A DNA stretch of 64,000 nt from Candidatus Binatia bacterium (GTDB lineage Bacteria; Desulfobacterota; Binatia; UBA9968): positions 13,561-77,560 of the forward strand of contig DASXUF010000017.1 of the NCBI GenBank assembly GCA_036504975.1, in the 5' to 3' direction. A program made the position numbers and the translations under genes. Positions 8,556 through 57,297 of the stretch are shown in pieces. The notes under the pieces are model-generated. The model was not told where the DNA came from. It saw nothing but the letters and a program-made list of their open reading frames with translations, and did not search any database. Within the stretch, counting starts at the first letter, position 1. Each line of letters starts with the position of its first letter.

Positions 8556-8571
8556 GACGAAATCCCCCTTC

Positions 8572-11637: not shown

Positions 11638-11646
11638 GACCGCAGC

Positions 11647-12426: not shown

Positions 12427-12435
12427 GGAAGTCTC

Positions 12436-34418: not shown

Positions 34419-34498
34419 TCAACTCATAAGGAGGAGGTCACACCCATAGCGGGGAGGGTCTGAAAGAGACCAAAAAGTTACGGGGCAAAAATCATATT

Positions 34499-35734: not shown

Positions 35735-35740
35735 GAACCG

Positions 35741-37117: not shown

Positions 37118-38088
37118 GTTTGCTCATTATCGTCGTGTTCGCTTTCTTGGCCGCGGCGAGCCTGATCATCATGGCCCTTTTTCTGGCCACCGCCATCCAG
37201 ACTTCGCCGCAAGCCCGCATCCGGAAAAGACTCGATGCCATCCTGAGCCGTCCGAATGCCTCGCAGGCGGAAGTGCGCGCCCTGCTCAAGGAATCGTCCT
37301 TCAGCGAAATCCCATGGCTGAACAACGCCTTGGATCGACTGGACTTCGTCCGCAGCATCACTCTCCTCTTGGAGCGGGCGAATCTGGATGTCAGCCCGGC
37401 GCTGTTTTTACTGTTCTCGTCCTTCACAGGAGCGATCACCTTGGCTTTCCTGACGCTGTTCGACTGGAGCTTTAGTATCGCTCTGATCGCCGGTATCGGC
37501 GCTTCCGCTCTTCCTTACCTGTACGCCCGGCAGCTTGGCCGAAGAAGGCTCAGGCGCTTTTTGGAGCAGATGCCCGACGCTCTGGACCTGATCGGCCAAG
37601 GCTTGCAGGCCGGCTTGGGATTGACCCAGTCGATGGTGTTCGTCGCCAAGGAAATGCCCGACCCCATCGGGACGGAATTTTCGGTCTTCATGGAAGAAAT
37701 AAACCTGGGGCTTCCGCTCGCAGACGCCTTGAAGGGACTGCAGGAAAAGATACCGCTCCAGGAAGTGCGCCTTCTGACCATTGCCATGGGCGTGCAGAGA
37801 GAAATCGGCGGCAGCCTGGCGGAGATGCTCAAAAACCTGGCGGACGTCGTGCGCGATCGGTTCAGGATCGAAAGGCAGATCAAAAGCCTAACGGCCCAAA
37901 ACCGCATGAGCGCTTGGGTTGTTTCCTCGCTGCCGCCGGTCTTGGCCGCTTTTATGTTCTCCATGGACGCGAAATTGATGAACGAAACTTTTAACAATCC
38001 CATGGGGCGGACGATGTTGCTGCTCGCGTTGAGTTTCGAAGTCGTCGGAATTTTCGTCTTCCGCAAGATTATTCAGGTGCGCATCTAG
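37114..38088 (+). CDS. tadB: TadB (T2SS-F-like inner-membrane platform protein)
   Basis: 324 aa polytopic protein overlapping cpaF by 4 nt (ATGA). GspF-like region ([21 protein letters not shown]). Confidence 0.8.
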
Positions 38089-38102
38089 CGGGCGGCGGAT
38101 TT

Positions 38103-39038
38103 ATGGAATTGCTTTTGGCCATCGGCATATTCGGTCTCGTCGGAAGTTTTTTATATATATTCCTGGCGCCAAAGCCGGCGGCCCAACATGAAATCATCCA
38201 GCAGCGCATCGGCGCAATCGCAGCCGTTCAGACAAAAGCGCCCTCTTCGGTCCGGGTATCAGACACCCAGGAACAAACGATCTGGGAACGGATTGGGAAT
38301 TTCTTTCTTGGCGAGAAAGAGCTGCCGGCGAAGTATGACAAGTCGCGCCGGCTTCTCTATCGGGCCGGCTATCCGTGGGAGCGGGCCGTGCGCATCTTCT
38401 GGGGCGTGCGCATCTTCCTGGCCGCGTTTTTCGGGCTGATCTCGATCGGCTTGGCTTTCGTATCTCTCACCCCCTTGCCCAAGATGGTTTTGCTGGTCGC
38501 CGCATTCGCCGCGGCGGGATACTTCCTGCCTCAACTCGCTCTCCAACGCAAAGCCAAGGCGCGCACGTTGGCCATACGCGATTCCCTGCCCGACACTTTG
38601 GATCTCCTTGTCATCTGCGTCGAGGCCGGCCTGGCCATGGACGCCGCCTTGGTTCGTGTAGCGAAAGAACAGGCGGAGCAAGGATTGATCATCGGCGAGG
38701 AGTTCCAGTTGATGACCCGGGAGATCCATGCCGGCATGGCGCGACGGGAGGCCCTTTCCCGGCTGGCCGAGCGGACCGACCTCGATGAGCTGAGAGGCCT
38801 GCTGACTTTCCTGAACCAAACGGAAGAGCTGGGCGGAAGCGTCGGCCGCTCGCTCAGAGTCTACGCGAGCACGATGCGCGACAAGCGCAGCCACAAGGCG
38901 GAAGAGGCGGCCAGGAAGGCGGTCATCAAGCTCGTCTTTCCAATCGCTCTTTTTGTCCTGCCCGCGCTGTTCTTGGTTATCTTCTCGCCGATTGTCATCA
39001 GCATCGCCAAGCTGCTTGTCAGCACCGGGAGTCACTAA
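38103..39038 (+). CDS. tadC: TadC (T2SS-F-like inner-membrane platform protein)
   Basis: 311 aa, second GspF-like paralog (LPDTLDLLVICVEAGLAMDAAL). Confidence 0.8.
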   Translation: MELLLAIGIFGLVGSFLYIFLAPKPAAQHEIIQQRIGAIAAVQTKAPSSVRVSDTQEQTIWERIGNFFLGEKELPAKYDKSRRLLYRAGYPWERAVRIFWGVRIFLAAFFGLISIGLAFVSLTPLPKMVLLVAAFAAAGYFLPQLALQRKAKARTLAIRDSLPDTLDLLVICVEAGLAMDAALVRVAKEQAEQGLIIGEEFQLMTREIHAGMARREALSRLAERTDLDELRGLLTFLNQTEELGGSVGRSLRVYASTMRDKRSHKAEEAARKAVIKLVFPIALFVLPALFLVIFSPIVISIAKLLVSTGSH

Positions 39039-39039
39039 C

Positions 39040-39438
39040 ATGCCGATCATTAACCTCGACAAGAACACGTGGCTCGCGACCAAAGTCAGAAAAGCCGACA
39101 GCTTTTTAACCCGGCTGGTGGGACTGATCAAAAGAAATAAGCTTGGCCCCGAAGAGGCGCTCTGGCTGATCCCCAGCAAAGGGGTTCACACCGTCGGGAT
39201 GAAGTTCCCTATCGACGTCATCTTCCTGGATAAGAACTATAAAGTCGTGGACGTAGTTCCGGCCATGGTTCCCTATCGCGCCACCAAGATTCATCTGACG
39301 GCTTACAGTGCCTTGGAGTTGCCCAAAGGCGCGATCGGAAAATCTCGCACCGAACCGGGAGACCGGCTGGACATATCGCAGGCGGAATCCTCGGCGGTCG
39401 ATGATTTGAGAGAGACCCAACTGAACGAAGTCGGGTAA
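39040..39438 (+). CDS. DUF192-family protein embedded in the Tad locus
   Basis: Start at ATG 39040, 1 nt after the tadC stop (MPIINLDKN...). The central block (LWLIPSKGVHTVGMKFPIDVIFLDKNYKVVD...LELPKG) matches the DUF192/COG1430 signature. Confidence 0.5.
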   Translation: MPIINLDKNTWLATKVRKADSFLTRLVGLIKRNKLGPEEALWLIPSKGVHTVGMKFPIDVIFLDKNYKVVDVVPAMVPYRATKIHLTAYSALELPKGAIGKSRTEPGDRLDISQAESSAVDDLRETQLNEVG

Positions 39439-39446
39439 ACGAAATC

Positions 39447-40658
39447 ATGCAGAAGCCATTTCTTTACAGGTACGCAGAGTCCCAAGGCGGACAGGTCATC
39501 GTTCTGGCCGCTTTATTGCTGATTCCGGTTGTAGGCATCATCGGGGTAGCCATAGATGCAGGCTTCCTTTTCCAGCTCAAAAGGAACATGCAGACGGCCG
39601 CTGATAGCGCTGCCGTTGCGGGAGCCCTAGAGACACGGAAGGGCAGTAACATAACTGCGATCACCACGGCGGCCGAGGACGACGCGGCCTTAAACGGGTT
39701 TACAAAAGGGGTGGACAACGTAAACGTCACAGTCAACAGTCCGCCAGCGAGCGGGCAGTATAGCGCCAGCGACGACTATATCGAGGTGATCGTTAATCAG
39801 AGGAAATCGACCTTCTTTATCCGCGTCCTGTCTCTCATCTCATCCGACGACTTCAGCACCGCCACAGTTGCGGCCCGGGCTGTCGCCGGCCCTAAGCCTT
39901 TGCCCGAGTGCATCTGGGCACTGAATCCCTTGGCGGTCACGGGATTGACGGTCGCTGGCACCGCCAGTATTAACGCCGCAGAGTGCGGCGTCTATGTCAG
40001 ATCAAGCTCGAGCACTGCGATGATCCTCAATGGAGGCGCGTGTGTGCACGTCAAAGAAATCGACATCGTGGGAAACTACACAGGCGGTTGTGCCACCCCC
40101 ACCCCAAGAACCAACGCTCCGGCAAAGTCCGATCCGCTGAGAAGTCTACCGGCGCCCACCCCCAGTCTCCCCTGCATTCTACCGCTGCCGACACAGCGGA
40201 ATTTTAACCCGGGTACTTATTGTACGATTGCCGTCAGTGGCAACGAGGCGTGGACCTTCAATCCAGGCACCTATTATATCGTCGGCGGCTTCACGATAGG
40301 CGGTAACGCAACCGTCACGGGCAACGGGGTAACTTTTTATATCGCAGCAGGAGGAAGCGTCAGCTTCGCCGGAACCGGTGCAGTGAGGCTCTCGGCTCCG
40401 ACCAGTGGAACCTATAAAGGTGTTCTCCTGTTCCAGGGCCGCACTAACCCGATTCCGGCCGCGATGTCGGGAGGCTCTAACAAAATCTTCAATGGGACAA
40501 TCTACGTTCCCGGCGCCGTCCTTTCTTTTTCAGGAGGGAGTTGCTCCGAATCTCGCACTGTGCTCATTGCCGATATTATCACAATTTCGGGTTCAACCTG
40601 TTTTGCGCAGCCCACGAACGCTCCATCGGGCCCCGGAAATGTAGTGCTCGCGGAATGA
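39447..40658 (+). CDS. tadG: TadG-like Flp pilus assembly protein (TadE/G N-terminal pseudopilin-like segment + large C-terminal domain)
   Basis: 403 aa. The N-terminal hydrophobic helix followed by AIDAGFLFQLKRNMQTAADSAA matches the TadE/TadG N-terminal (Tad_N) motif. Gly/Thr-rich beta-like C-terminus. Confidence 0.6.
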   Translation: MQKPFLYRYAESQGGQVIVLAALLLIPVVGIIGVAIDAGFLFQLKRNMQTAADSAAVAGALETRKGSNITAITTAAEDDAALNGFTKGVDNVNVTVNSPPASGQYSASDDYIEVIVNQRKSTFFIRVLSLISSDDFSTATVAARAVAGPKPLPECIWALNPLAVTGLTVAGTASINAAECGVYVRSSSSTAMILNGGACVHVKEIDIVGNYTGGCATPTPRTNAPAKSDPLRSLPAPTPSLPCILPLPTQRNFNPGTYCTIAVSGNEAWTFNPGTYYIVGGFTIGGNATVTGNGVTFYIAAGGSVSFAGTGAVRLSAPTSGTYKGVLLFQGRTNPIPAAMSGGSNKIFNGTIYVPGAVLSFSGGSCSESRTVLIADIITISGSTCFAQPTNAPSGPGNVVLAE

Positions 40659-41578: not shown

Positions 41579-42892
41579 CTAGACAGCCATCTTGCTGAGT
41601 TCCGAATGGGAATAACTTTGCTCGGCTGCCGCGGCAAATTTTGCTAGCTTGCGATAGAGTGTTCGGGGAGATATGCCAAGCAACTCGGCGGCCTTCATCT
41701 TGTTGTTATCAGACTTTCGGATTGCCTCCTCCACCACTTCCCTTTCAGCCTGCTCGATGGTCCGAATCGCCTTGGCGCCGATCTCTACCCGGTGACCGGT
41801 CGCGTACTGCTGCAAATGCATCGGCAGGTCGGCGACGGTCACGTACTCCTCATCCGAAACCATCAGCGCGCTCTCGATCACATTCTTGAGTTCCCGGACA
41901 TTGCCCGGCCATGGATAATCCAAAAACAACGCCTTGACCGAGCTGCTTAACTTTTTTGCTGGTTTGGGATTCGGCCCACAAGCCCGGCGGATAAAGTGCT
42001 CGACCAAAGGCAGAACATCTTCCCTGCGCTCATACAGCGGCGGCAAGATGATGCGGGCGCTGTTCAATCGATAATAAAGGTCCTTGCGAAAGCTGTCGTT
42101 CGAGATGGCCTGCTCGAGATTTCGGTTGGTCGCGGCGACAATGCGCACGTCGGCGGTTTTAGCCGAAGAGTCTCCGATCCTGTAGTATTCGCGGCTTTCC
42201 AAAAAGCGCAAAAGCTTCAGTTGAATATTCGGAGAGAGATCTCCGATCTCATCGAAAAACAGCGTTCCCCCTTCGGCAGACTCGATCAGCCCCATTTTGT
42301 TCTTATCGGCTCCGGTGAACGCGCCTTTGACGTGTCCGAATAGCTCGCTCTCGACCAGGGTATCCGGAATCGCGCTGACGTTGCACGGAACGAACGGCCC
42401 GGTCTTTCTCGGACTCTCATCGCAAATGTAGCGAGCCACCACCTCTTTACCGGTGCCCGTCTCGCCGGTGATTAGGATGGTTACGTCGTGCTTGGCATAA
42501 CGAGTTGCCAAGTCCAGGACCTCGCGGAACTTTGTCCCTTCCGCGATTATTTGCTGCGAGAATGATTCTTCCGGCCGAGGACTGTCGGCCTCGATCTGGC
42601 AGCCAAGAAGGTATTGAAGGTTTTGGGGAAACTCGGCATGAAAGGTAACCAGCGTAGCGCTTGAGCCGCCGATCCTGGACCGATAAACGAACTTCTCCCA
42701 GCCCGGGCCCTGGCACATGGCGACATCAACGAAGATATATTTGACCTGATCTAAAAGGAAGGAGTAGGCACGTTCGGCTTCTTCCCAGCTACTGCTCAGA
42801 TGGATCGATAAGCCCCGCTCTTCGAGGGACTTTTGAACCGGAGCGACCGGAGCGCCCAGTCCGTAAATCACCAGTGTGTGGATATTGGACAT
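41579..42892 (-). CDS. sigma-54-dependent transcriptional activator (AAA+ sigma54-interaction domain + Fis-type HTH) with degenerate receiver-like N-domain
   Basis: 437 aa. Walker A (GETGTGKE), GAFTGA loop (HVKGAFTGA), Walker B, arginine finger and C-terminal HTH_8 ([16 protein letters not shown]). The N-terminal ~120 aa are receiver-like but I cannot find a canonical phospho-acceptor Asp context. Confidence 0.85.
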
Positions 42893-43395: not shown

Positions 43396-43870
43396 TCACC
43401 GGTTCGCCTTTTCGGACAAGAACTCCAGGACTTCTTGCGGATGCTCCTCGGCGTTCTTCACCGTCTGCCAATGTTTTCTGACCTTGCCGTCCGCGCCGAT
43501 CACGACCGTCGAGCGGATCGTGCCTTCGACCGTTTTGCCGTACATTATCTTTTTGCCCCAAGCGCCGTAGGCGCGCATGACCTTGGCCTCGGGATCTGAA
43601 AGCAATACGAATGGCAGGCGATAGGCGGTTTTAAATTTATCGTGCGACGCGGGACTGTCTTTGCTGACGCCGAGAACCGCGGCGCCCGCTTTTTGCACGT
43701 CTTGGTTTAAGTCTCTGAAGCCGCAGGCTTCCTTCGTGCCATCCGGGCGTGTTGTCTCTGGGATAAAAGTAGAGAACGACCGTTTTCCCGTTGTAGTCTT
43801 TGAGCCGATGGCGCTTGGCGTCGCTTCCTTCGAGTTCGAAATCCGGCGCCTTCTTTCCCTCCAGGTTCAT
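43396..43870 (-). pseudogene. bcp: thiol peroxidase Bcp (peroxiredoxin Q family) interrupted by a +1 frameshift at the peroxidatic-Cys codon
   Basis: Two overlapping minus-strand ORFs in different frames encode the N-terminal (MNLEGKKAPDFELEGSD...VVLYFYPRDNTPG) and C-terminal (QKAGAAVLGVSKDSPASHDKFK...) halves of Bcp. Deleting one G in the run around 43735-43737 restores the conserved ...PGCTKEACGFRD... motif. GGAGGA RBS precedes the ATG. Confidence 0.55.
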
Positions 43871-43989
43871 CGCGTCCTCCGTTCCGTGCGCCCGGTTCCT
43901 AGAGATAACGGCTATATGACAAATACCAAGGCCGGTCAACGACCCGCGCCGGATTGTTAACCATCAGTGGCGGCGCTATAGTTTCGGTG

Positions 43990-45084
43990 ATGGCCAAGAC
44001 GACTCCTCTCGTAGATATTCACCGCGTGCACGGCGCAACGCTCGTCGAACAAGACGGCTGGGTCTTGCCGGCCCGTTTCGGCGCGCCGCTGGAGGAATAC
44101 CAGGCCGTCCGCTCGGCCGTAGGACTCTTTGACATGTGCGACTACGCCGCGGTCGAGCTCACCGGGCCGGACCGCGCCTCCTATCTTCAGGGCATGGTCA
44201 GCAACGACGTTAAAAAACTCACGCTGGGAAGCGGAGTCTATGCAGCCGTGCTCGACGTGAACGGCAAGATCCTCGCGGATTTGAGAGTTCTTTGTGCTGA
44301 AGAGTCTTTAATCATTTTACTGAAGGACTTCTTGAAAGAAAAAGTCATCGCCCAACTGAACCGCTATCTCGTGGCGGACGACGTCGAGATCAGCGACGCC
44401 GCCGGGCGTTATGGAATGATTTCCCTTCAGGGCCCGCACGCCTTCCTTTTATTGAATGCCGCCGCTCCCCATCAGGACCCGCCCGTGCATATGAACGAGC
44501 ATCGTGTGCTCCGCATCGTAGAGCGGGAGGTCCGAGCGATTCGCGCGACCCACACCGGCGAAGAAGGGTTCGATCTCTTGATGGAGGTCGAAAATCTCGC
44601 GCAGGTCGTCGGCGAAATCGAAAGGGCCGGAACGGCGCTCGCTCTCCGCTGGGCGGGGCTCCAGGCGCAGGAAATCCTTCGGGTCGAGGCCGGCCTGCCG
44701 CGCTACGGCATCGACATGGACGAAGATAATTTATTGCTGGAGACCGGCCTGGAGCACGCCGTGAGTTTCAACAAAGGCTGTTACATCGGCCAGGAAGTGA
44801 TCGAGCGCGTGCGCTCGCGCGGCCACGTCAACCGGAAACTCGCCGGCATCGCGCTCGACGGGGAAAGCCCGGCGCAGCGCTGCGACAAGATCCATGCCGA
44901 CGGAAAAGAAATCGGCCGAGTCACCAGCTCGGTTTTTTCGCCGAAGATCGGTCGGCCCATCGCTCTCGGCTACGTGCACCGCGATTACTGGGCGCCGGGC
45001 ACGACGGTCTCCGTCGAACGAAACGGCGAGCGGATCGGCGGCATGGTTACAGCCCTGCCTTTCGTGTATTCGACTTCCCCTTGA
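43990..45084 (+). CDS. aminomethyltransferase (GcvT/YgfZ) family folate-binding protein
   Basis: Start at ATG 43990 (MAKTTPLVDIHRVHGATLV...). GCV_T-fold blocks (AVGLFDMCDYAAVELTGPD, GEEGFDLL, GCYIGQE). Confidence 0.7.
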   Translation: MAKTTPLVDIHRVHGATLVEQDGWVLPARFGAPLEEYQAVRSAVGLFDMCDYAAVELTGPDRASYLQGMVSNDVKKLTLGSGVYAAVLDVNGKILADLRVLCAEESLIILLKDFLKEKVIAQLNRYLVADDVEISDAAGRYGMISLQGPHAFLLLNAAAPHQDPPVHMNEHRVLRIVEREVRAIRATHTGEEGFDLLMEVENLAQVVGEIERAGTALALRWAGLQAQEILRVEAGLPRYGIDMDEDNLLLETGLEHAVSFNKGCYIGQEVIERVRSRGHVNRKLAGIALDGESPAQRCDKIHADGKEIGRVTSSVFSPKIGRPIALGYVHRDYWAPGTTVSVERNGERIGGMVTALPFVYSTSP

Positions 45085-45141
45085 AAGCCGCTGGGAGCTG
45101 GGATAGATAATCGCACTCCAGGAAAGAAAGGAGATCCAAGG

Positions 45142-45447
45142 ATGGCAGCATTCGTTAAGGTGTGCAAAAAAACAGATATCCCGGCAGGATCTGGCAAGAC
45201 CGTTGACGTTAACGGCAAAGCGGTTGCTCTCTTCAACGTAGATGGAAACTTTCACGCCGTCGATAATACTTGCCTGCACCGCGGCGGACCTCTCGGCGAA
45301 GGCGAGCTGGACGGCAAAATCGTTACCTGTCCCTGGCACGGTTGGAGGTACGATGTAACGACCGGCACAAACGAACTCACCCCGTCGGTGACGGTGGCCA
45401 AATATGAAGTAAAGGTCGAGGGGGAGGACGTACTGGTCGCCGCGTAG
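45142..45447 (+). CDS. Rieske [2Fe-2S] ferredoxin (NirD/small-subunit type)
   Basis: 101 aa with Rieske ligand boxes (CLHRGGPL ... CPWHGWRY). Confidence 0.8.
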   Translation: MAAFVKVCKKTDIPAGSGKTVDVNGKAVALFNVDGNFHAVDNTCLHRGGPLGEGELDGKIVTCPWHGWRYDVTTGTNELTPSVTVAKYEVKVEGEDVLVAA

Positions 45448-45469
45448 ACTTTCAATCTCAGCGTTCGGC

Positions 45470-45550
45470 AAGTTGACCGTTCGTACTTCGACTAAGCTCA
45501 GCACGAACGGTAAAACTGGGACCGGTCATCCTGAGCCCGTCGAAGGATGA
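45470..45550. repeat. tandem REP-like hairpins (ccgttcgt-ACTTCGACTAAGCTCAGC-acgaacgg and gtcatcct-gagcccgtcgaa-ggatgac)
   Basis: The loop 15-mer ttcgactaagctcag recurs at 46712..46726 inside another hairpin. The second hairpin matches the gtcattctgagcgaagcgaagaatc-type element at 10524..10556. Confidence 0.5.
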
Positions 45551-45574
45551 CTCAGCGTTCCTTACAAAATCTTT

Positions 45575-46042
45575 CTAACTTCGATTGATTTTATCCAGCT
45601 CCTCCAGCAGCTCTTTGTTCTCGGGAATTCCCTTGTCGTATTCTTTGCGGTAGCGGATCATGCCCCGCTTGTCGATGATGACGACGGTCCGCTTGGGGTA
45701 TCCTTCCGGGCGCAGACAATTGTAGAGGGCGGTCACCGCTCCGTGCGGATAAAAATCCGACAGCATCGGGAAATTGATTCCGCCCATCTTCTCGGCGAAC
45801 GCCTTGTGTGAAAAAACCGAATCGACGCTTACGCTCAGAACCTGAGCGTCTCTGGCCTCGAACTCCTTGCGGTCGGCTTCGAGGTTGGTCAGCTCCTGCT
45901 GTCAGCCGCCGGTGAAATCCAGCGGATAAAACGCCAGCACGACGCTCTTCTTGCTGGCAAAGTCTTGCAAGCCGACTTTTTGTTCCCGCGATACGGGAAG
46001 AGTGAAATCGGGTGCCTTCTGGCCCACATCGACGGTCGCCAT
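45575..46042 (-). CDS. peroxiredoxin (AhpC/TSA family) with in-frame TGA at the peroxidatic-Cys position (candidate selenocysteine-containing Prx)
   Basis: ATG at 46042..46040 with a strong AAAGGAGGA RBS. The frame reads MATVDVGQKAPDFTLPVS...SVVLAFYPLDFTGG[TGA]QQELTNLEADRKEFEARDAQVLSVSVDSVFSHKAFAEK and joins, still in frame, the C-terminal ORF 45575..45787 (MGGINFPMLSD...). The TGA (45902..45904 on plus) is codon 47 and sits where Prx proteins carry T-x-x-C within FYPLDFTFVCPTE. A hairpin (CCUCGAA...UUCGAGG) lies 18 nt 3' of the UGA. Confidence 0.5.
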
Positions 46043-46080
46043 ACAAATCCTCCTTTAAAATCGAATCGTCCAGTAATCCA

Positions 46081-46626
46081 TTACTTCATTTTGGCGCCGA
46101 GGTAAACCCTGATGTAATCTCTCAACGCCTCGCGCGTACTGTCAAAGCCGAGGTCGTCCCAGGGAATTTCCCGAGAATCGAACGTGGCGGCCTCGACGGA
46201 CTCGTCGCCGGCTTCGAGCTGGCCGCCGATCACCTCCGCCGCGTAGACTACGATCACGTTGGGAGAACCCTTGTACGAATACACGCCGACGACCGGCCCG
46301 AGACGAACGTCGAGACAGGATTCTTCCCGCGTCTCGCGAATCGCCGCGTCCATAACGCTTTCGCCGCGATCGACGTAGCCGCCGGGAAAGACCCACTTGC
46401 CGAGCGCCGGCTCGACGCCGCGGCGCAGCAGGACCACGCGTTGGTCGATCGTGAACAACGTCCCGGCGACGACCTTTGGATCGAGATAAAAAATAAACGA
46501 GCATCCCGCGCACACGAGCCGCTTGGGCTCGCCGGCCTTCATCAGACGACGTTCCAAACCGCCGCCACACTGCGGGCAAAAACGATACTCGACGTGGCCG
46601 TGGCCGTGCTCTTTTAGGTGCGCCAT
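46081..46626 (-). CDS. NUDIX hydrolase with N-terminal zinc ribbon
   Basis: 181 aa. Cys4 ribbon (CPQCGG...CAGC) followed by a Nudix box (GGYVDRGESVMDAAIRETREESCLDV). Confidence 0.75.
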   Translation of the reverse strand: MAHLKEHGHGHVEYRFCPQCGGGLERRLMKAGEPKRLVCAGCSFIFYLDPKVVAGTLFTIDQRVVLLRRGVEPALGKWVFPGGYVDRGESVMDAAIRETREESCLDVRLGPVVGVYSYKGSPNVIVVYAAEVIGGQLEAGDESVEAATFDSREIPWDDLGFDSTREALRDYIRVYLGAKMK

Positions 46627-46878
46627 TTTTCTTATTTATCTTGGGACCTCAGGCTTCCGTGTGATGCAAGGCTCGGAAATCGCACCGCCGAGGCGCGGAG
46701 GGCACGTCCTTCGACTAAGCTCAGGATGCGCAGCTATGAAGGAATTCCGCTCGTGGTGAGCTTGTCGAACCATGCGAACTCCGTGTCTCGGTGGTGAATG
46801 ATTCTTCACAGGAAACCCTGAATAGCCTTTATCTTAGACTCGGTTGAAACAAAAGAGGGTATTCGGTAAGCCTTAGCC

Positions 46879-47574
46879 ATGCTGCGCGCCGTGATCTTCG
46901 ACTTCAATGGAATTTTGGTGAACGACGAGCCGATTCATTGGGAATTGTTCCGCAGAGTTCTGCTCGAAGAGGGCTTGGCGCTTAGCGACAAGGAATACTA
47001 CGAGCGCTATCTCGGCATGGATGACCGCGGCTGCTTCAGGGCGGTTTTCCAAGACCGGGGACGGTCGTTGAACGACGCCGCGCTCGCGAAGTTGATCAAG
47101 CGCAAGGCGGAATACTATCGCGCGTCGATCGCCGATCGCATGGTCGTTTTTCCCGGCGTGAAGGAGCTGGTGCCGGAGCTTGCCGCGCGCTTTCCGCTCG
47201 CCGTCGCCTCGGGCGCGCTGCGCGACGAAATCGAGCTAGTCTTGCAAAGCTTCGGCTTGAGAAATTTATTTCGTGCGATCGCGAGCGCGGAAGACGTCGC
47301 CGAAGGCAAGCCCGATCCCGGGATCTTTTTGAAAGCCCTTCAGACGCTCAACGATGAGTCCGGCGAGTCGGGGCCAGGCAAGGAATTGATTCGCCCTTCC
47401 GAGTGCCTCGTGATCGAGGACTCCAAGGAGGGAATCCTGGCCGCGCACCGCGCCGGCATGAAGTGCCTGGCGGTCGCCAACTCCTATCCCGCCCACGATC
47501 TCGCCTCGGCGAACGCCGTGGCCGACAGCCTGAAAGACGTGACCGTCGCGCTGCTCGAATCCCTGTTCAAGTAA
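46879..47574 (+). CDS. HAD-superfamily hydrolase, subfamily IA (phosphatase / beta-phosphoglucomutase-like)
   Basis: 231 aa. Motif I (VIFDFNGILVND), motif II (AVASGA), motif III/IV (LVIEDSKEGILAAHRAGM). Confidence 0.75.
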   Translation: MLRAVIFDFNGILVNDEPIHWELFRRVLLEEGLALSDKEYYERYLGMDDRGCFRAVFQDRGRSLNDAALAKLIKRKAEYYRASIADRMVVFPGVKELVPELAARFPLAVASGALRDEIELVLQSFGLRNLFRAIASAEDVAEGKPDPGIFLKALQTLNDESGESGPGKELIRPSECLVIEDSKEGILAAHRAGMKCLAVANSYPAHDLASANAVADSLKDVTVALLESLFK

Positions 47575-47635
47575 TTCTTGCAGACTTCTTCTGCGCCGGT
47601 TTTCTTGCTCATGCCTCACGCCTCTCGCCTCATGC

Positions 47636-48355
47636 CTATCGGTACGGTGTTTGCTGCGGCCGGATGGTGATTTCGACCGGGCACGAAGTTGTCGGCAAAG
47701 ACAGCACGAACAACACGGTCTCCGCGATATCGTCCGGCTGGATCATCTTGCTGCGGTCCAATCGTTTGTTGGGCGGAATCAACGGCGTATCCACGAATCC
47801 CGGAAGGATCACGGAAACTTTGATGCCGTATTCGCGCACCTCTTCGAAAAGCGACTGCGTGAATCCGATCACGCCGAATTTCGACGCCGAGTACGCGGCG
47901 GTGTTCGCCGAGCCCGCTTTGCCGGAGATCGAACCGATGTTGATGACCGCCCCGCTCTTTTTTTGCAGCAGCGTCGGAAGAACCAGGCGGGTCATGATCA
48001 TCGTCGCTCGCAGGTTGACCTGAAGCGTCCTGTCCACCTCTTCGATCTTGCTGTTCGCCACCGGCGCGGTTTTTCCCCATCCCGCGTTATTGACCAGAAT
48101 ATCGATCGACTCCCACTCTTTCAGCGTGCGCTCGACGAGACGCTCCATATCTTCGTCGCGCGTGACGTCCGTTGGCAAGACGAGCGCGTCGCCGTCACTG
48201 CTCCTGATCTCCTCGGCCACGGCGCGCAGCTCCGGCTCGCTCCGCGCCGCGAGCGCCACGCGCGCGCCGGCCCGGCTCAGCGCCAGGGCGATCGCCCGGC
48301 CGATGCCGCGGCCCGCGCCGGTGACGATCGCGACTTTATTCGTCAAAGACTTCAT
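47636..48355 (-). CDS. SDR-family oxidoreductase (3-oxoacyl-ACP-reductase-like)
   Basis: 239 aa. TGAGRGIG cofactor motif, NNAG, catalytic YxxxK (YSASKFG). Confidence 0.85.
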   Translation of the reverse strand: MKSLTNKVAIVTGAGRGIGRAIALALSRAGARVALAARSEPELRAVAEEIRSSDGDALVLPTDVTRDEDMERLVERTLKEWESIDILVNNAGWGKTAPVANSKIEEVDRTLQVNLRATMIMTRLVLPTLLQKKSGAVINIGSISGKAGSANTAAYSASKFGVIGFTQSLFEEVREYGIKVSVILPGFVDTPLIPPNKRLDRSKMIQPDDIAETVLFVLSLPTTSCPVEITIRPQQTPYR

Positions 48356-48375
48356 AAATTCGCCGGCGCATGAAC

Positions 48376-48798
48376 TCAGTGCACGGTCGAAGGCTCGATC
48401 GGCGCGGGCGGGTGCGCGACCGGCGAGCCATGATGATGGATCAACAGCCAGCCCTCCGGACGCTTTTCAAAGATGTTCGTCGTCAATACGACCGCGGCGA
48501 CCGACTCTTGGCCGACACGGTTGGTGAGGTTTTCGTACAGCGTTACCCATGCCAGAGAATCGCGCACCTCGACCCGCGCTTCGGTCAGCACAAAGCGGAT
48601 CTCGTCCGTATTCTCGAAAATTCTGCGCCAGCTCGTCATGACCGGCTCCCATCCCCGCAACATTTCCCAGCCGGGGTGAAAACATTGGATGGTGTCCGCC
48701 TTGAGCCAGACGCGCTCCATCCGCGCGATATCGAAGCTCTCGAAAGCCCGGTAAAAGTTTTCGTTCGCCGTATAAACGGCTCTTTGTTCGCTGGTCAT
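48376..48798 (-). CDS. SnoaL-like / NTF2-fold (DUF4440-type) protein
   Basis: 140 aa with composition and length typical of the ketosteroid-isomerase-like NTF2 fold. No catalytic assignment possible. Confidence 0.45.
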   Translation of the reverse strand: MTSEQRAVYTANENFYRAFESFDIARMERVWLKADTIQCFHPGWEMLRGWEPVMTSWRRIFENTDEIRFVLTEARVEVRDSLAWVTLYENLTNRVGQESVAAVVLTTNIFEKRPEGWLLIHHHGSPVAHPPAPIEPSTVH

Positions 48799-48810
48799 GA
48801 TTGCTGAGCC

Positions 48811-49137
48811 TCAGTGCAACGGCCTGGGCGCCATGAAGACGAGAAGGACGAGGCGATCCGGTCCGGGGTTCGTGACACCGTGCTTCTGTCCGGACGGGGC
48901 CATCACAATCTCTCCGTCGCCCAGCTCTCTTTCCTCGGTTCCAACCTGAAAGGCCCCTTTGCCCTTCACGACATAATAAATTTTGTCCGAGCCTTCGTGC
49001 GCGTGCGCCGCCTGGCTTTGGCCCGGCTCGAAGCAATAGAGATCGCAGAACAGCCGCTCGGTCTCGAAAAGACCGTTCTTCTTCATCTTGTCCGCCGCGA
49101 ACTGCATCGCCGCGGAAATTTTTTTAAAGTTGGCCAT
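48811..49137 (-). CDS. single-domain cupin protein
   Basis: Start placed at MANFKK with a GAAGGAGA RBS 5 nt upstream. Cupin motifs (GQSQAAHAHEGSDKIYYVVKG ... GEIVMAPSGQKHGVTN). Confidence 0.55.
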   Translation of the reverse strand: MANFKKISAAMQFAADKMKKNGLFETERLFCDLYCFEPGQSQAAHAHEGSDKIYYVVKGKGAFQVGTEERELGDGEIVMAPSGQKHGVTNPGPDRLVLLVFMAPRPLH

Positions 49138-49416
49138 CGCCGTCTCCTTCGAACTCATTGCTTTCATACAGCGCGCCAACCCTGCAAATCAAGAGGAAAT
49201 TGTTAGATTGCTTCATTGAGGAACCCGCCGGCCTGGGTGTGTCTCGTAGGGCCGATGCGTCGCCCGAGAAATATCCAAGCGTACTTTAGAATTCCACCCT
49301 AGAAAACTCGTGCCGCGTAACACCGCCGTATCGCATCGGCCCGGAGAGATACTCCCAGGCCAGCGGTTAGCGGTAAGTCGATGGGTCTTTTTCAACGGCT
49401 GTGTTATCTTGACCGC

Positions 49417-50580
49417 ATGAATTCCGTTCTGGTCCGCTATCACGAAATCGCCTTGAAGAAAGGCAACCGTCCTTACTTTATCGACCTGCTGAAGAGAAAC
49501 CTGGTTTCGGCGGTCGGCGGTCTGCCGCTCACCGAGGCGAAGACGCTGCAAGGGCGAATTCTTCTTTCCTTCGGCGCAGAAGCGCCTCGGGAAGAAATCG
49601 GCCGGCGACTCGAGCGCGTCTTCGGCGTCGCCAATTTCTCCTTTGTCGAGCGCATGCCTGCGGACATCGACGAGATCGAAAAACGGATCGTTCAAGCGCT
49701 GGACGGCAAACAGTTCGCTTCTTTCCGCATCGACGCGCGCAGAGCGGACAAAGATTTTCCGCTCACGTCTCCCGACATCAATCGCAAGCTCGGAGCCGCC
49801 GTCAAGGCGAAGAGCGGCGCCCGCGTAGACCTGGAAAACGCCGAGCTCACCGTATCGGTCGAAATCCTGCCGCGCACGGCGTTCTTCGGCTTCGATAAAA
49901 TTGCTGGCGCCGGCGGCCTGCCCGTCGGCGCCAGCGGCCGGGTCGTTTCGCTTATCTCCGGCGGCTTCGATTCTCCCGTGGCGGCTTACCGAATGATGCA
50001 GCGGGGCTGCCGGCTCATCTTCGTTCATTTTCACAGTGCGCCTTATTTGGACAAGACTTCACAGGAAAAATGCCGCGCGCTGGTGAAGCTCCTTACGCGA
50101 CACCAGTTCACCTCTCGCCTTTACCTGGTCGCGTTCGGCGAGATTCAGCGCCAGATCGTCGCCGGAGTTTTACGGCCTTTGCGCGTCGTGCTCTATCGCA
50201 GGATGATGCTGAGGATCGCTGAAGCGATCGCGAAGAAGGAAAAAGCGCAAGCCCTGGTGACCGGTGAGAGCCTGGCGCAGGTTGCGTCGCAAACGTTGGA
50301 AAACCTCGCCGTCATCGGCAAGGCCGCGACTCTTCCCTTGCTTCGTCCGCTGGTCGGCATGGACAAGCAGGAGATCATCGATCAAGCGCGCAGGATCGGC
50401 ACGTTCGAGACATCGGCGACGCCGGACCAGGACTGCTGCCAGCTTTTCGTGCCCAAGCATCCGGCGACCAAGGCAAAACTCGCCGACGTCGAAGTAGCGG
50501 AAGCGAAGATCGATTTTCTGGCGCTGGTTCAACTCGGAGTGGAAGGCGCACAGGTTGAAGAATTCAAATTTCCAGAGTGA
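49417..50580 (+). CDS. thiI: tRNA 4-thiouridine(8) synthase ThiI (THUMP + PP-loop ATPase)
   Basis: PP-loop (SGGFDSPVAAY) and ThiI-like N-terminus (VLVRYHEIALKKGNRPYF). An alternative upstream ATG lies at 49381. Confidence 0.75.
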   Translation: MNSVLVRYHEIALKKGNRPYFIDLLKRNLVSAVGGLPLTEAKTLQGRILLSFGAEAPREEIGRRLERVFGVANFSFVERMPADIDEIEKRIVQALDGKQFASFRIDARRADKDFPLTSPDINRKLGAAVKAKSGARVDLENAELTVSVEILPRTAFFGFDKIAGAGGLPVGASGRVVSLISGGFDSPVAAYRMMQRGCRLIFVHFHSAPYLDKTSQEKCRALVKLLTRHQFTSRLYLVAFGEIQRQIVAGVLRPLRVVLYRRMMLRIAEAIAKKEKAQALVTGESLAQVASQTLENLAVIGKAATLPLLRPLVGMDKQEIIDQARRIGTFETSATPDQDCCQLFVPKHPATKAKLADVEVAEAKIDFLALVQLGVEGAQVEEFKFPE

Positions 50581-50688
50581 CTTTGCGGCCTTGGCGTCTT
50601 GGCGCGATGAAGAATTCGGATCGGATAAAAACGATCTCGCGCAAAGACGCAAAGAGCGCCAAGGAAAACGGTGAACAACCGGTAGAAA

Positions 50689-51822
50689 ATGAAAGTCGGA
50701 ATTATCGGCGGCGGACCCGCAGGTCTCTACTTCGCACTGCTGATGAAGAAACACGACCCGCAGCACGAGATCGAGATCGTAGAGCAGAACCCGCCCGACA
50801 GCACTTACGGCTGGGGCGTCGTTTTTTCGGGCCGCGCCTTGTCATTCCTGGAAGAGAGCGACCGCGATTCCTACGCCGATATCGCCCGCAGGCTTGAACT
50901 TTGGGACCAACAAGGGATTGTCCACAAAAGTCAAAGGGTCGCGATTCGCGGCGGCACATTTTCCGGGCTCGCTCGAATCGACCTCTTGCGCATTTTACAA
51001 GAACACTGTCGGAAAGCCGGCGTAATATTCCACTTTCAAACCCGGGTCTCCGATCCGGAGCTTTTTTCCGACTGTGACCTCGTCGTCGGCGCGGACGGCG
51101 TCAACAGCATCGTGCGGCAGAAATATCGGGAACACTTTCAACCGACGCTGGACGTGCGGTCGAACAAATATGTCTGGTACGGAACGAATCAGCGGTTCGA
51201 CTCCCTGACCTTGATCTTTCGCCAAAACCAAGACGGTGTCTTCGTCGCCCATTCTTACAGCCACAGCAAAAGCGCCAGCACTTTCATCGTCGAGTGCGAT
51301 GCGCCCACCTGGGTTAAAGCAGGCTTTGAATCGATGACCGACGAAGAAAGCCGCAGTTACTGCGAGGAGGTCTTCAAAGACGATCTGGGCGGCCACACGC
51401 TGCTGTCGAACAAGTCCGTGTGGATTAATTTCGTCGTGGTGGGTAACCGGCGCTGGAGCTATAAAAACATCGTGCTGATCGGCGACGCGCTCCGCACGGT
51501 GCACTTTTCCATCGGCTCAGGCACGAGAACGGCGTTCGAAGACGCGATCGCGCTGTACCGGACCTGTGCGGCGAACGAAAACGTTGAAGCGGCGCTGGGT
51601 GAATTTGAGCGAAGCAGAAAGCCGACCGCCGATCGGCTGCTCGAGGTCGCGCATCATAGCCTGGTTTGGTACGAGCGCTTTGGGGACAAGATGGATCTCG
51701 ATCCCATCCCCTTTGCCTACGATTACATGACGAGAGGCGGAAGAATCGATCACGAAAAGCTGCGCGAGCGAGATCCCGAATTCATCGCCGCGTACGAAGC
51801 CTACAAGGCATCGCAGTCGTGA
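50689..51822 (+). CDS. FAD-dependent aromatic-ring monooxygenase (salicylate-hydroxylase / UbiH-like)
   Basis: 377 aa. GxGxxG (KVGIIGGGPAGL), DG motif (VVGADGVNS) and GD motif (VLIGDALRTVHFSIGSGT). Confidence 0.8.
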   Translation: MKVGIIGGGPAGLYFALLMKKHDPQHEIEIVEQNPPDSTYGWGVVFSGRALSFLEESDRDSYADIARRLELWDQQGIVHKSQRVAIRGGTFSGLARIDLLRILQEHCRKAGVIFHFQTRVSDPELFSDCDLVVGADGVNSIVRQKYREHFQPTLDVRSNKYVWYGTNQRFDSLTLIFRQNQDGVFVAHSYSHSKSASTFIVECDAPTWVKAGFESMTDEESRSYCEEVFKDDLGGHTLLSNKSVWINFVVVGNRRWSYKNIVLIGDALRTVHFSIGSGTRTAFEDAIALYRTCAANENVEAALGEFERSRKPTADRLLEVAHHSLVWYERFGDKMDLDPIPFAYDYMTRGGRIDHEKLRERDPEFIAAYEAYKASQS

Positions 51823-51867
51823 ATGCCGGCAAATGTTTCGCCACTCAAAGCGAAATGCGTGGGAGCC

Positions 51868-53886
51868 CTACTTTTTTTGGGACGCAGTACTCTCTTTTGG
51901 AACCGTCCGAAGTACCACACCTCGATCTCGTGCCCAACACTCCCTATCTGTCTCAGGGCACGCTGGACCTTCCTCACTGGTGATTGTAATGCGGTTGCTC
52001 TCAATACCTCCACGTGTTTGCAAGTAGTTGACAATACTTTCTGCCCTTTTAGACGGTAAATCCAAACTTTCCCCGGAAAGCGGATTTTGTCTCTTATACC
52101 AAACAACAAGTAAGCTATAATTTGGGTTTTGTTTAAAGAACATTGCGAGACGATCCAGAAGTTTTGCGGCATCCGGTTTCAAAGCAGTCTTGTCAAAATC
52201 AAACAACACAATGTTGTCAAGAATTACGGTACGTTCAATCTTAGGAGAGGGAGCGGCTTTTTTCGCCTGCTGCTCCACCTCTTCCAACCTCTTTGCCGCT
52301 TCTTCCGTTCTCCGCTGCACCTCGGCGACCTGTTTCTCAAATTGAGCAGCCCGCTGAACTTCGGGCTGTTGACCACCACCGGCAGCGGCTTTCCTTTGCA
52401 AGGCATTCAATTTTGCCAAGGTCATTGCAAGCTCTTCTTGAGCCACAACGAGATCTTTCGCCCGCATTGCGATACCCTGCTCTAACTTCGCTTGTTCAAC
52501 TGCCCTTAGTGCGGTTTGCCGCTGCAGATCAGCCTCCCTCTTTTGGAACAAGGATACACTAGTACCCAGAATAAGCATTATCGCAAAAATCGTCTTAAAA
52601 ACGGTTGGCACACGAAACCGCCGGCTCCTCCTTACTGCGCCCGCTACGCTGTCGTGACTAAGCTCATAATAAAATCCCTTCAGACCAGGGCGGGCCTCTT
52701 TTCGTATCAGCTTGGCATCGACAAGTGTTTTCAGCGCATTCTCCGAGATCCCGTATTGTTTACGAATCTGACCGTACTCCATGCTTATTCTGTGGCCGTC
52801 TGGACTCAGAAGTCCTAGTTCGCATAGACGTCGCGAGCGGCAACGCTGCCGAAAAGATGAGATCTCTCGCACAGCTTGACGGTAGAAATTTTCGAGGAGT
52901 TTTTCCATGTTCTTGGCGCCACCGAGCAATTGGTCATCAACCAGGATGTCTTTTGACCCTTCTTGCTGGCGGCGAAGAACCTGTTGCTCCGCGTGCTGGC
53001 AGATAATTTGAAGCTGAAACGGTTCCACTTCACCTTGTCGACTGGCCAGAAAAGCCATTATGCTGTCGAGCGTAGCTTTCTTATAACGAAAAGGCCGCGT
53101 CGCGAACACTTCAGGTAAGTCCAGAAGCGCCGGCTCAACCACGGCTCGTCGAGCCGCTTGCGTATCCAACGGTGTGAGACGAAATCGCTGCTCGAAGATT
53201 CCGGGAATATTCTGGACAAGTTGCTCCAGCGCTCCCACGTACTCTTCGCGGAAACTCAAGATAATCTTAATTTCTGGTGGCGAGTCCGCATAACGCCCGC
53301 GATCTGGCGAGGGCGGCTCCTTACGAATCCTTTCCGGTAAGCCTCGGCCGACAAGCTCCCCCAGTTGACGTGCGAGGGCGACGCGAACAGATTCCGACTG
53401 CAGATTGAATACCTCCTCGAATTGATCGAAGACCAGGACCGGTACCTGAAGCGTATCACCGCGCCATAAGTCCGTGGCCTTGAAAAATTCCCACAAACCT
53501 TCAGTTTTACGGTCGGTATAGTCAACCGCCTGTTCCTGACAGGTAGTTCGCAGCAACGCAAAAACAGCTTCAATGGGACCGATATCGGGTCGATCAAGCC
53601 GTATGCTTACGGGCAGTAGTCCGTACTCGCGGAGTCGTGGGAAAAGGCCTGCTCTTAGAAGAGATGTTTTTCCCAGACCCGATTTGCCGAAAATGACGAG
53701 CATGCGAGTCGCTCGAACCCGATGCACTAAATCGTAGATTTCCTGCTCGCGGCCAAAAAACAATCGTTGATCGAGTTCGTTGTCTTCGAAGTACCGTGGA
53801 CCGGGATATCGCTCGTGTGAGCCGGGCGTCAGAGACAAGACTGTTTCTTCTTCACGCTTCGCTATGGCGACCGCAGCTTTACTCAC
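51868..53886 (-). CDS. STAND-type P-loop NTPase with central TM helix, periplasmic coiled coil and C-terminal OmpA-like peptidoglycan-binding domain (island gene 4)
   Basis: 672 aa, GTG start 2 nt after the upstream stop. The N-terminal NTPase has Walker A (GKSGLGKTS) and Walker B (VLVFDQFEE) in an nSTAND/AAA_16-like context, preceded by the FGREQEI motif. A hydrophobic segment (VFKTIFAIMLILGTSVSLF) follows, then a Gln/Ala/Glu-rich coiled coil. The C-terminal ~100 aa (LFDFDKTALKPDAAKLLDRLAMFFKQNPNYSLLVV...SKRAESIVNYLQTRG) are OmpA_C-like. Low-GC segment. Confidence 0.55.
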   Translation of the reverse strand: MSKAAVAIAKREEETVLSLTPGSHERYPGPRYFEDNELDQRLFFGREQEIYDLVHRVRATRMLVIFGKSGLGKTSLLRAGLFPRLREYGLLPVSIRLDRPDIGPIEAVFALLRTTCQEQAVDYTDRKTEGLWEFFKATDLWRGDTLQVPVLVFDQFEEVFNLQSESVRVALARQLGELVGRGLPERIRKEPPSPDRGRYADSPPEIKIILSFREEYVGALEQLVQNIPGIFEQRFRLTPLDTQAARRAVVEPALLDLPEVFATRPFRYKKATLDSIMAFLASRQGEVEPFQLQIICQHAEQQVLRRQQEGSKDILVDDQLLGGAKNMEKLLENFYRQAVREISSFRQRCRSRRLCELGLLSPDGHRISMEYGQIRKQYGISENALKTLVDAKLIRKEARPGLKGFYYELSHDSVAGAVRRSRRFRVPTVFKTIFAIMLILGTSVSLFQKREADLQRQTALRAVEQAKLEQGIAMRAKDLVVAQEELAMTLAKLNALQRKAAAGGGQQPEVQRAAQFEKQVAEVQRRTEEAAKRLEEVEQQAKKAAPSPKIERTVILDNIVLFDFDKTALKPDAAKLLDRLAMFFKQNPNYSLLVVWYKRQNPLSGESLDLPSKRAESIVNYLQTRGGIESNRITITSEEGPACPETDRECWARDRGVVLRTVPKESTASQKK

Positions 53887-53888
53887 GA

Positions 53889-55211
53889 TCAGTCCCCTCT
53901 AATACGGTTCTGCCGCTTAACCCAGTTCGCCTGGATGTGACTCGCCAGGCGTTCCAGGCCATGTGGATCAGTCAGTTCAACACGCTGTAACTTATCCAGG
54001 CGTTCGAGTCCTAGGGACCCTTCCAAAATTGCAGGAATCAGAAAAGACTCGCCCTCATCGAATTCCTTTTGCCGCTCCAGTGCTTCCGCGATCTCTTTAT
54101 GGATATAACTCCGCGGTTTCGAAAGCATGTTCGGTGTTTGAAGTACAAGTACGTAGTCCACTTGCTTCCCCAGGACATGTACGATGCGTCTATTCCAATC
54201 ATCGCCACCGCGGAGATCCTGCTGGTCGCGCCATGTATCGACCCCGAGGCTATGTAATTTTTGCTCCACTTCCATCACCCGCTCTTGATCACGCCTATCG
54301 TAGCAAAGGAATACTTTGGGAGAGTTGGGCGGTATTTCCCGTACTACTGCCTGTGGAGCTTGTGCTTCGTAGAGCCGACGCAGCTCAGACGCAAAGTCGG
54401 ACCACGAATAATGCCGGAACTCGATCTTGTGCTCCTGGGTGAAAAACACTGCGCTTTGAGCGCTATCCGGGTGGTCGAAGAATGCAGCACCTTCTACCGC
54501 CAACGATCGATTACGATGGCGATACGTTTGCAAGACGTGAAGCAGCACACGCGCGTACCAGCGCTGAAAACCAAAACCAAGAAACAGAAACGACGTGCCA
54601 GGGTCGGCGAGCTGACCCGCGATATACGGCGGCAGAGGATGGGTACCTTTGATTATATTTACCAGGAATTCCAGCAAGTCGGTCTCTGTTAATACCAACG
54701 AATCTAGTTCCTTAAGATCGCCGTGGAGTTGATAGACGATTGGATGCTGAATAGTACCTTTGGAGAGACTCGTCGGCCGATGTTTCTGGTAATGGTAAAA
54801 GTCGTAAGTCGAAGATTTGTGGGCATCTTTCAAAGCGTTTACCATGAAGGGGACATAACTCATGCTCAAACAAAGTGTAAAAGGCAACGCAGCGAGATCT
54901 TCATGAAACCGCGAGGTACGCTTCGCAAACGGCGCATAGAAGTCCTTTACTTCCAGTTCCAGATCGTAGTGATCACCTCCGGGACTGTTGCAACGGAGCT
55001 GAGCCACCTGGGCTAAGTCCTTCCGAATGATATCTGGCGTATCTGCCGGCAGTTTTCGAGCCAGGTGTTGGGCGAGTTTGGTTGTGAGCGGGGTGTGATC
55101 AGGGTCGTCGGGATCAAAAACCATATCAGGTCCGCATACGAGGACACAGTTGCCCCGATTGATCGATTCAATTAAGCGGCGCCAGTCTTGTTCTGAAAGG
55201 CTATCTTTCAT
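53889..55211 (-). CDS. SIR2-like (SIR2_2/DHS-like) N-domain fused to a C-terminal TIR domain (island gene 3)
   Basis: 440 aa. The N-terminal ~250 aa match SIR2_2-type blocks (NCVLVCGPDMV ... HPIVYQLHGDLKELDSLVLTETDLLEFL ... SFLFLGFGFQ). The C-terminal ~140 aa form a TIR domain (KVFLCYDRRDQERVMEVEQKLHSLGVDTWRDQQDLRGGDDWNRRIVHVLGKQVDYVLVLQTPNMLSKPRSYIHKEIAEALER) with the conserved Glu context. Confidence 0.55.
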   Translation of the reverse strand: MKDSLSEQDWRRLIESINRGNCVLVCGPDMVFDPDDPDHTPLTTKLAQHLARKLPADTPDIIRKDLAQVAQLRCNSPGGDHYDLELEVKDFYAPFAKRTSRFHEDLAALPFTLCLSMSYVPFMVNALKDAHKSSTYDFYHYQKHRPTSLSKGTIQHPIVYQLHGDLKELDSLVLTETDLLEFLVNIIKGTHPLPPYIAGQLADPGTSFLFLGFGFQRWYARVLLHVLQTYRHRNRSLAVEGAAFFDHPDSAQSAVFFTQEHKIEFRHYSWSDFASELRRLYEAQAPQAVVREIPPNSPKVFLCYDRRDQERVMEVEQKLHSLGVDTWRDQQDLRGGDDWNRRIVHVLGKQVDYVLVLQTPNMLSKPRSYIHKEIAEALERQKEFDEGESFLIPAILEGSLGLERLDKLQRVELTDPHGLERLASHIQANWVKRQNRIRGD

Positions 55212-55271
55212 GTCAGAGTCTTTTTCTAGTCGGGTCGCAATTCCGTTTCAGGACAACTGCACCTAGAACAA

Positions 55272-56144: not shown

Positions 56145-56324
56145 TCCTCAGCCTAGCTGGTTGGTTAGTAAAATAGGGCGAATTGTGGATTGGTGTCAAG
56201 ACGAAACAGGGATGATCCCGAATCAAATAATTTTTGCGTCGCTTTTGCTCCGTCTTTGAAGGACGACTCACTTTTCAAAACGGTAGCTTTGGAGGGCAGG
56301 TCAGTCAAAATAAGACGCTGCAAT

Positions 56325-57131: not shown

Positions 57132-57297
57132 ACCTGCCCCCCTTCCAATCGCGGGCAGTCTAGGACGTACCTCCGATTTAGGCAAACGATGGCGGAAACT
57201 ACTTTGGTCTCAAGTCCGACTTGATTACCAAAGCGTTGAGTCGGAGAGTGGCCTGAACTCTAGGTTTAAATTAGTTTTCTCCGGACTCGGATTGTCA

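Follow-up and report, generated by a model that had tools for sequence, protein, structure and literature searches.

A peroxiredoxin gene of a Candidatus Binatia bacterium, AhpE-like by its sequence, carries an in-frame UGA at the codon of the peroxidatic residue, and this UGA very probably encodes selenocysteine (U47, within PLDFTGGU), a reading to which we assign a probability of about 0.88. We infer the identity of the residue from its catalytic position, from SECIS-like structures in the message and from the recurrence of the exchange of Cys for Sec in peroxiredoxins, which is documented (PMC1794560). What appears to be new is the combination of an AhpE-like subfamily with Sec, its occurrence in the Binatia lineage, a consistent mis-annotation of the gene and a recoding signal built of two hairpins.

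Reading frame and family of the peroxiredoxin

The gene lies on the minus strand of a stretch of 64,000 nucleotides, which was analysed as a whole and is referred to here as the window. Its parts are as follows.

45575..46042, minus strand: AhpE-like peroxiredoxin gene, complete, 155 residues, with Sec predicted at residue 47
46050..46058, minus strand: Shine-Dalgarno-like AAAGGAGGA, 7 nt 5′ of the peroxiredoxin ATG, read from the sequence
45902..45904, minus strand: in-frame UGA (codon 47), the putative Sec codon, where PLDFTGG-U (PxxxTxxU) has its peroxidatic residue
45716..45718, minus strand: codon of Cys109 (+62 from Sec), placed by the codon table and by alignments to AhpE and homologues

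From the ATG at 46042 the peroxiredoxin frame runs through 46 sense codons to the TGA (45904..45902), which is codon 47, and continues beyond it for 108 further in-frame codons (...INRS) until a TAG closes it at 45575. Directly before the TGA stands the peptide VVLAFYPLDFTGG, directly after it QQELTNLEADRKEF. A preliminary description, made from the letters of the DNA, had reported this interrupted frame, and it is present at the same coordinates with the peptide exactly as quoted there; it had also remarked that the track of open reading frames split and mis-framed the gene, which fits the mechanical ORF list, where the gene is cut into a 46-aa and a 70-aa piece and a 151-aa out-of-frame ORF is placed over the same DNA.

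With Cys put at the TGA, the protein matches the Pfam family AhpC/TSA (PF00578) over residues 6-131 with an E-value of 5.1e-36 (123.8 bits against a cutoff of 26). The best seven matches in the PDB, six of which are chains of Mycobacterium tuberculosis AhpE (Rv2238c/MT2298), have E-values of 4e-27 to 4e-26, and the next peroxiredoxin subfamily follows at 6e-20. None of the NCBIfam profiles reaches its cutoff on the protein and no selenoprotein model captures the clade; the equivalog model NF040737 (peroxi_PrxU) scores 74.9 bits, against a cutoff of 270 bits. Since the closest solved structures are AhpE chains and the PrxU score remains below its cutoff, the Binatia peroxiredoxin is, as far as its sequence tells, AhpE-like, and neither of the AhpC/Prx1 type nor a PrxU orthologue. 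The AhpC/Prx1 assignment of the preliminary description has to be replaced on this account, AhpE structures standing ahead of any other peroxiredoxin subfamily.

M. tuberculosis AhpE (Rv2238c; PDB 1XVW, 1XXU, 4X0X), the closest solved structure, is about as long as the Binatia protein, shares 40% identity with it over 136 residues and has the active-site loop FxPLxFTGx[C/U]QxEL in common with it, but carries Cys, not Sec, at the peroxidatic position. In the alignment the UGA column coincides with the peroxidatic Cys in FPLAFTGICQGEL of the mycobacterial enzyme and with the Cys of F/WSPVC in homologues from Acidobacteriota, as well as with the Cys of database proteins, so that the earlier claim that the TGA replaces the peroxidatic Cys is borne out, the UGA column being the CP column when the protein is aligned with Cys-containing homologues. 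It is unlikely that the reductant of mycobacterial AhpE (mycoredoxin/mycothiol) is the same in Binatia. A Cys is found at +62 in 37 of the 41 clade members, including the window, where it is Cys109, and another at +57 in 34 of 41, the window not among them, while AhpE and the distant Cys homologues shown have Cys at neither +57 nor +62. Judged from this distribution, Cys109 may possibly be the resolving thiol for a selenenic acid.

Peroxiredoxins with Sec in a TxxU motif (PF00578) are an established, experimentally verified family of bacterial selenoproteins, common in lineages that used to be placed in the Deltaproteobacteria (PMC13188914, PMC1794560). The Binatia gene resembles this family in its AhpC/TSA fold, in a putative Sec taking the place of the peroxidatic Cys in PxxxTxxU, in the existence of Cys homologues and in a SECIS-type hairpin inside the open reading frame shortly 3′ of the UGA; domain, UGA column, conservation of the UGA and downstream hairpin all agree with the family at the level of sequence. 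Unlike the catalogued TxxU proteins, the Binatia clade is AhpE-like and is unmatched by the NCBIfam selenoprotein models. PrxU of Eubacterium (Peptoclostridium) acidaminophilum, an experimentally verified Sec-peroxiredoxin, likewise has Sec at the peroxidatic position, but it is the longer protein (the NF040737 profile has 233 positions, against 155 residues in Binatia).

Conservation and database annotation of the TGA codon

A scan of species-representative genomes yielded 80 loci, among which 41 close relatives cover the TGA site, with 71-92% amino acid identity. At this codon every one of the 41 reads TGA, in the invariant context FYPLDFTGG-TGA, and no variant with a Cys codon occurs at the site within this clade. 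Such agreement over 41 of 41 related genomes is far beyond chance. The next tier of homologues (about 38, Acidobacteriota, ~47-50% identity) has TGC in F/WSPVC at the UGA column. The TGA also stands in two contigs from JGI, one of them independently assembled (L081), which is 100% identical to window positions 43738-57458, TGA included, and the other (L082) reading ggc ggc tga gag at the site. On either side of the TGA the median pairwise dN/dS is low, 0.10 for the 42 codons 5′ and 0.08 for the 105 codons 3′, at a dS of ~1.4-1.5, which shows that selection preserves the two parts as a single reading frame.

That the TGA could be an error of sequencing or assembly, or a nonsense mutation confined to one strain in a pseudogene whose true or ancestral codon was TGC or TGT, draws some support from the neighbouring Bcp gene, which has a genuine-looking assembly defect of this kind, an additional G in its own Cys codon at the end of an independent contig. 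An accident of this sort, however, would have to recur in all 41 genomes, each assembled independently, and in two JGI contigs, in a clade with no Cys-codon variant and with dN/dS near 0.1 on both flanks, and alongside hairpins under selection that are specific to the TGA clade (see below); we regard its probability as negligible. Likewise, UGA is not reassigned throughout the genome, because 19 of 39 Pfam-supported genes in the window end normally in TGA, which is their commonest stop. Sequencing error, pseudogene, split gene and reassignment are hence either excluded or very unlikely as origins of the TGA.

The candidate put forward in the preliminary description, a selenocysteine peroxiredoxin, thus gains support from the TGA in 41 of 41 relatives, from purifying selection on both flanks and from a covarying hairpin that in the window lies within the published bSECIS limits. 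Nearly all of the 41 relatives are Candidatus Binatia or metagenome-assembled genomes (MAGs) labelled 'Deltaproteobacteria'. A few genomes of the TGA clade (loci L012, L024, L030, L031 and L039) are labelled Acidiferrales, Eisenbacteria, Verrucomicrobiia, Udaeobacter or Proteobacteria, labels that could stem from horizontal transfer or from mis-binning of soil MAGs. A further peculiarity concerns the natural stop of the orthologues (L001-L040), which is TAG in 25 of 40, TAA in 10 and TGA in only 5, against TGA in 19 of 39 genes of the window. The difference may be fortuitous, or a gene to which SelB is recruited may avoid having another UGA.

In databases the gene is found mostly in pieces. 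The nearest database proteins are overwhelmingly C-terminal fragments of 85-105 aa that start past the TGA at differing called starts, and the NCBI/ENA entries of the gene are such fragments under the name 'redoxin domain-containing protein'. Four 'full-length' JGI/IMG proteins (P0001-P0004), from short contigs and named 'mycoredoxin-dependent peroxiredoxin', have Trp at the TGA position (FTGGWQQEL); as the DNA of one of them, contig L082 at 567-1034, has TGA there, the W reflects a gene call under genetic code 4 and not a Trp residue. A systematic annotation error is thereby exposed, in which scores of entries hold only the C-terminal part of the protein or contain a spurious Trp. The many entries of 85-105 aa that begin past the UGA might be taken as a sign of two products, a 46-residue N-terminal peptide and a C-terminal protein made from an internal start. 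Yet the starts that were called vary between contigs (MTNLE.., VLSVS.., MSISV.., MGGIN..), so that there is no conserved internal start, and the frame runs on through the UGA under equal constraint on both sides; moreover, the N-terminal piece would end just short of the catalytic residue and the C-terminal piece would be without the PxxxTxxC/U loop, neither of them being a functional peroxiredoxin. Two separate products are, in our estimate, very improbable, and we retain a single protein read through the UGA.

Hairpins H1 and H2 downstream of the UGA

Two hairpins follow the UGA within the coding sequence.

45856..45884, minus strand: hairpin H1, core stem CCUCGAA/UUCGAGG of 7 bp, topped by an additional upper stem of 2 bp and a loop of 8 nt, GACCGCAA
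45833..45847, minus strand: hairpin H2, GCUCAG-GUU-CUGAGC, second SECIS component or candidate SelB site

Their pairing was counted in an alignment of 72 nt from the UGA (alignment A1), comprising 39 distinct sequences. The core of H1, formed by columns 21-27 with 43-49, starts at the 18th nt past the UGA codon; the preliminary description had pointed to this 7-bp CCUCGAA/UUCGAGG stem, which is found at 45884..45856 after a spacer of 17 nt. Of 273 cells 272 are paired, the pair 22-48 is CG in 26 sequences, UG in 7 and UA in 5, and in some clade members the stem is lengthened at either end. The codons that form the stem are almost without synonymous variation (Leu CTC 27/28, Asn AAC 36/36, Phe TTC 39/41). 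[quoted passage not shown] In the window the distance from UGA to H1 loop is 27 nt, the MFE is -12.8 kcal/mol and the loop begins with G, values that pass the bSECIS consensus; across the 39 sequences the spacing is 24-31 nt and the MFE is -8.0 or below throughout, and the loop ranges over the clade from 4 to 15 nt, with variable sequence and no conserved G[G/U]. H1 is a SECIS candidate by its position, and the stem proposed earlier as a SECIS proves to be a conserved, covarying hairpin that agrees with the published description in spacing, in MFE and, within the window, in its loop.

H2, which the preliminary description does not mention, is more conserved than H1. It is made of columns 58-63 with 67-72 (GCUCAG-GUN-CUGAGC) and starts at the 55th nt past the UGA codon. 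All of its positions pair in each of the 39 sequences, the closing pair being GC in 31, GU in 5 and AU in 3, and the consensus of the loop is N1-G-U-N-N2, in which N1 and N2 covary as a pair. Its stem codons for Ala (GCT 41/41) and Ser (AGC 41/41) are fixed, while the Val codon in the loop varies freely. The MFE of H2 is -6.7, and between its loop and the UGA there are 60 nt, more than the rule of 16-37 nt allows; if the 29 nt of H1 are looped out, the distance becomes 31 nt. The motif occurs only in the peroxiredoxin gene in ~1.35 Mb of sequence searched on both strands, and CAGGT(N)CTG has a frequency of ~0.003 per 72 nt in the sequence examined.

Several lines of evidence bear on the two hairpins jointly. 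Both are present 3′ of the UGA in every member of the TGA clade and absent from the Cys homologues, which pair at only 61-66% of the hairpin columns and which, with the same peptide DAQVLG, show an ordinary variety of codons (Ala GCG/GCC, never GCT). Synonymous diversity is close to 0 at the codons of the hairpin stems, against 0.4-0.7 in the rest of the gene and at the loop codon of H2. Compensatory changes give Fisher p-values of ~0.007 for H1 and ~0.006 for H2, uncorrected for phylogeny, and as a control, shifting the partner columns destroys the pairing. Folding of 76 nt against shuffled sequences (z = -0.6) is uninformative taken alone, and it is the comparative analysis that is decisive. 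No Rfam family fits the hairpins, either in the whole window at gathering thresholds or in a permissive scan of 45780-45960.

Some candidates were set aside. Rfam matches such as mir-1290 and toga_FSE are at chance level. An alternative long-range helix around H1 (columns 13-18 with 58-63) is not conserved, and its Leu codon varies freely. In the window only, GAGCGUC (45941-45947, minus strand) is the exact reverse complement of GACGCUC (45844-45850), which overlaps the 5′ arm of H2; this long-range pairing, which surfaced as the spurious mir-1290 match, is not conserved either, relatives having GAACGUC.

Like the SECIS of the E. coli fdhF type, the Binatia elements are stem-loops in the open reading frame 3′ of the UGA. 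The apex of H2, CA-GGUNC-UG, equals the fdhF apex CA-GGUC-UG plus one nucleotide (the fdhF SECIS sequence was verified in 5,419 E. coli genomes), and G23 and U24 of the fdhF loop are determinants of SelB binding (PMC8659212). A counterpart of the bulged U17 of the fdhF type is missing from H2. Unlike the bSECIS consensus, there are two conserved hairpins instead of one, and 60 nt separate the UGA from the hairpin that has the GGU loop. Neither H1 nor H2 alone is a textbook SECIS, and we conclude that the two together would form the recoding element. A more specific proposal, that of a bipartite SECIS in which the invariant H2 would be the real SelB-binding site and H1 a structural spacer, is offered tentatively and is rather less probable than its being wrong. 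Under such an arrangement H1 would stay folded at the mRNA entrance of the ribosome and thereby bring H2 to an effective distance of ~31 nt from the UGA. If true, it would represent a distinct class of bacterial SECIS and would account for the whole clade being missed by standard predictors and annotation pipelines. In either case, a two-hairpin signal with synonymous constraint offers a natural test case for the distance between SelB hairpin and UGA.

Probable selenocysteine insertion and other features of the window

In the mechanism that we propose, the UGA would be recoded during translation by SelB with Sec-tRNA(Sec), directed by H1 and H2 in the coding sequence. The selenolate at residue 47 would then reduce peroxides and be converted to the selenenic acid, for whose resolution the clade-specific Cys109 and an external thiol or redoxin are the alternative candidates.

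Genes for the insertion machinery were sought in the sequence at hand. ARAGORN found no tRNA-Sec in the window and 42 related loci, and tblastn with E. coli SelA, SelB and SelD as queries gave no match at E 1e-5 in the window or in the ~0.6 Mb of related loci, a result that is only indicative. Pfam detected no sel genes in 30 large ORFs of the window or in the precomputed Pfam annotation of contig L081. A scan for other TGA-interrupted ORFs based on GC3 did not separate real from spurious frames at 57.5% GC, and clusters of conserved in-frame TGAs over the loci were obscured by the off-frame and antisense conservation that close relatives share; among the larger TGA clusters listed, only that of the peroxiredoxin looked real.

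This outcome of the search in the window and related loci leaves some room for a decoding of the UGA other than as Sec, either by near-cognate or suppressor read-through (as Trp, Cys or Gly) helped by the hairpins, or by reassignment of UGA, and downstream structures are able to stimulate read-through in general. Reassignment is contradicted by the use of TGA as the commonest normal stop in the window (19/39). As for read-through, Trp or Gly at the position of the catalytic Cys would inactivate the enzyme, and Cys would be obtained more simply from a Cys codon. Furthermore, the site is one of recurrent, documented exchange of Cys for Sec in peroxiredoxins (PMC1794560), and the apex of H2 matches, but for one additional nucleotide, the apex of E. 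coli fdhF to which SelB is known to bind. We consider a residue other than Sec improbable, and selenocysteine remains the preferred reading of the UGA.

Among the papers searched, none links Binatia or Binatota to selenocysteine, and none describes a Sec form of an AhpE-type peroxiredoxin. If selenocysteine is correct, Candidatus Binatia, an uncultured group widespread in soil and groundwater, would be added to the users of this amino acid, and the gene indicates that the AhpE-like branch of the peroxiredoxins also has a Sec form. The exchange of Cys for Sec in a peroxiredoxin of the 1-Cys type would have a bearing on resistance to over-oxidation. The known picture of selenoproteins would not be changed fundamentally.

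The Bcp-type peroxiredoxin next to this gene (43396-43872, minus strand) is frameshifted by an extra G in its peroxidatic Cys codon, with the break at 43738-43742. The sequence there reads gga tgg c acg aag gaa gcc tgc (TGGC for TGC), where NTPG-C-TKEAC is expected; contig L081 ends at window position 43738, inside this Cys codon, and the copies of the gene in relatives have TGC or TGT in 10 of 10 cases (nine loci). Most likely the additional G is an artefact at an assembly junction, and not a mark of a pseudogene or of a recoding site. Bcp was considered as a second selenoprotein or a case of programmed frameshifting and rejected, the relatives having plain TGC/TGT and the +1 G falling on the contig end.

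Elsewhere in the window, three groups of genes may be mentioned. A run of defence-type genes on the minus strand (51868-56144), known from the precomputed Pfam of L081 and having two ORFs upstream without a Pfam match, looks like an anti-phage defence islet.

55272-56114, minus strand: SLATT_2 (precomputed Pfam of L081)
53889-55211, minus strand: fusion of SIR2_2 and TIR_2 (precomputed Pfam of L081)
51868-53886, minus strand: nSTAND1 with OmpA (precomputed Pfam of L081)

The region 7458-13494 (minus strand) has a tandemly repeated arrangement in which bicupins alternate with substrate-binding proteins.

7458-8555 and 10555-11637, minus strand: two bicupin proteins with two Cupin_2 domains each
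8572-9522, 9519-10574 and 12436-13494, minus strand: NMT1/THI5-like and phosphonate-type substrate-binding proteins

Finally, a Tad/Flp-type pilus cluster on the plus strand comprises a secretin with a pilus N-terminal domain, a ParA/MinD-like ATPase with a receiver domain, a T2SSE ATPase, two T2SSF proteins and one TadE/G-like protein, and past it lies a sigma-54 activator on the minus strand.

32883-40658, plus strand: Tad/Flp-type pilus cluster
41579-42892, minus strand: sigma-54 activator
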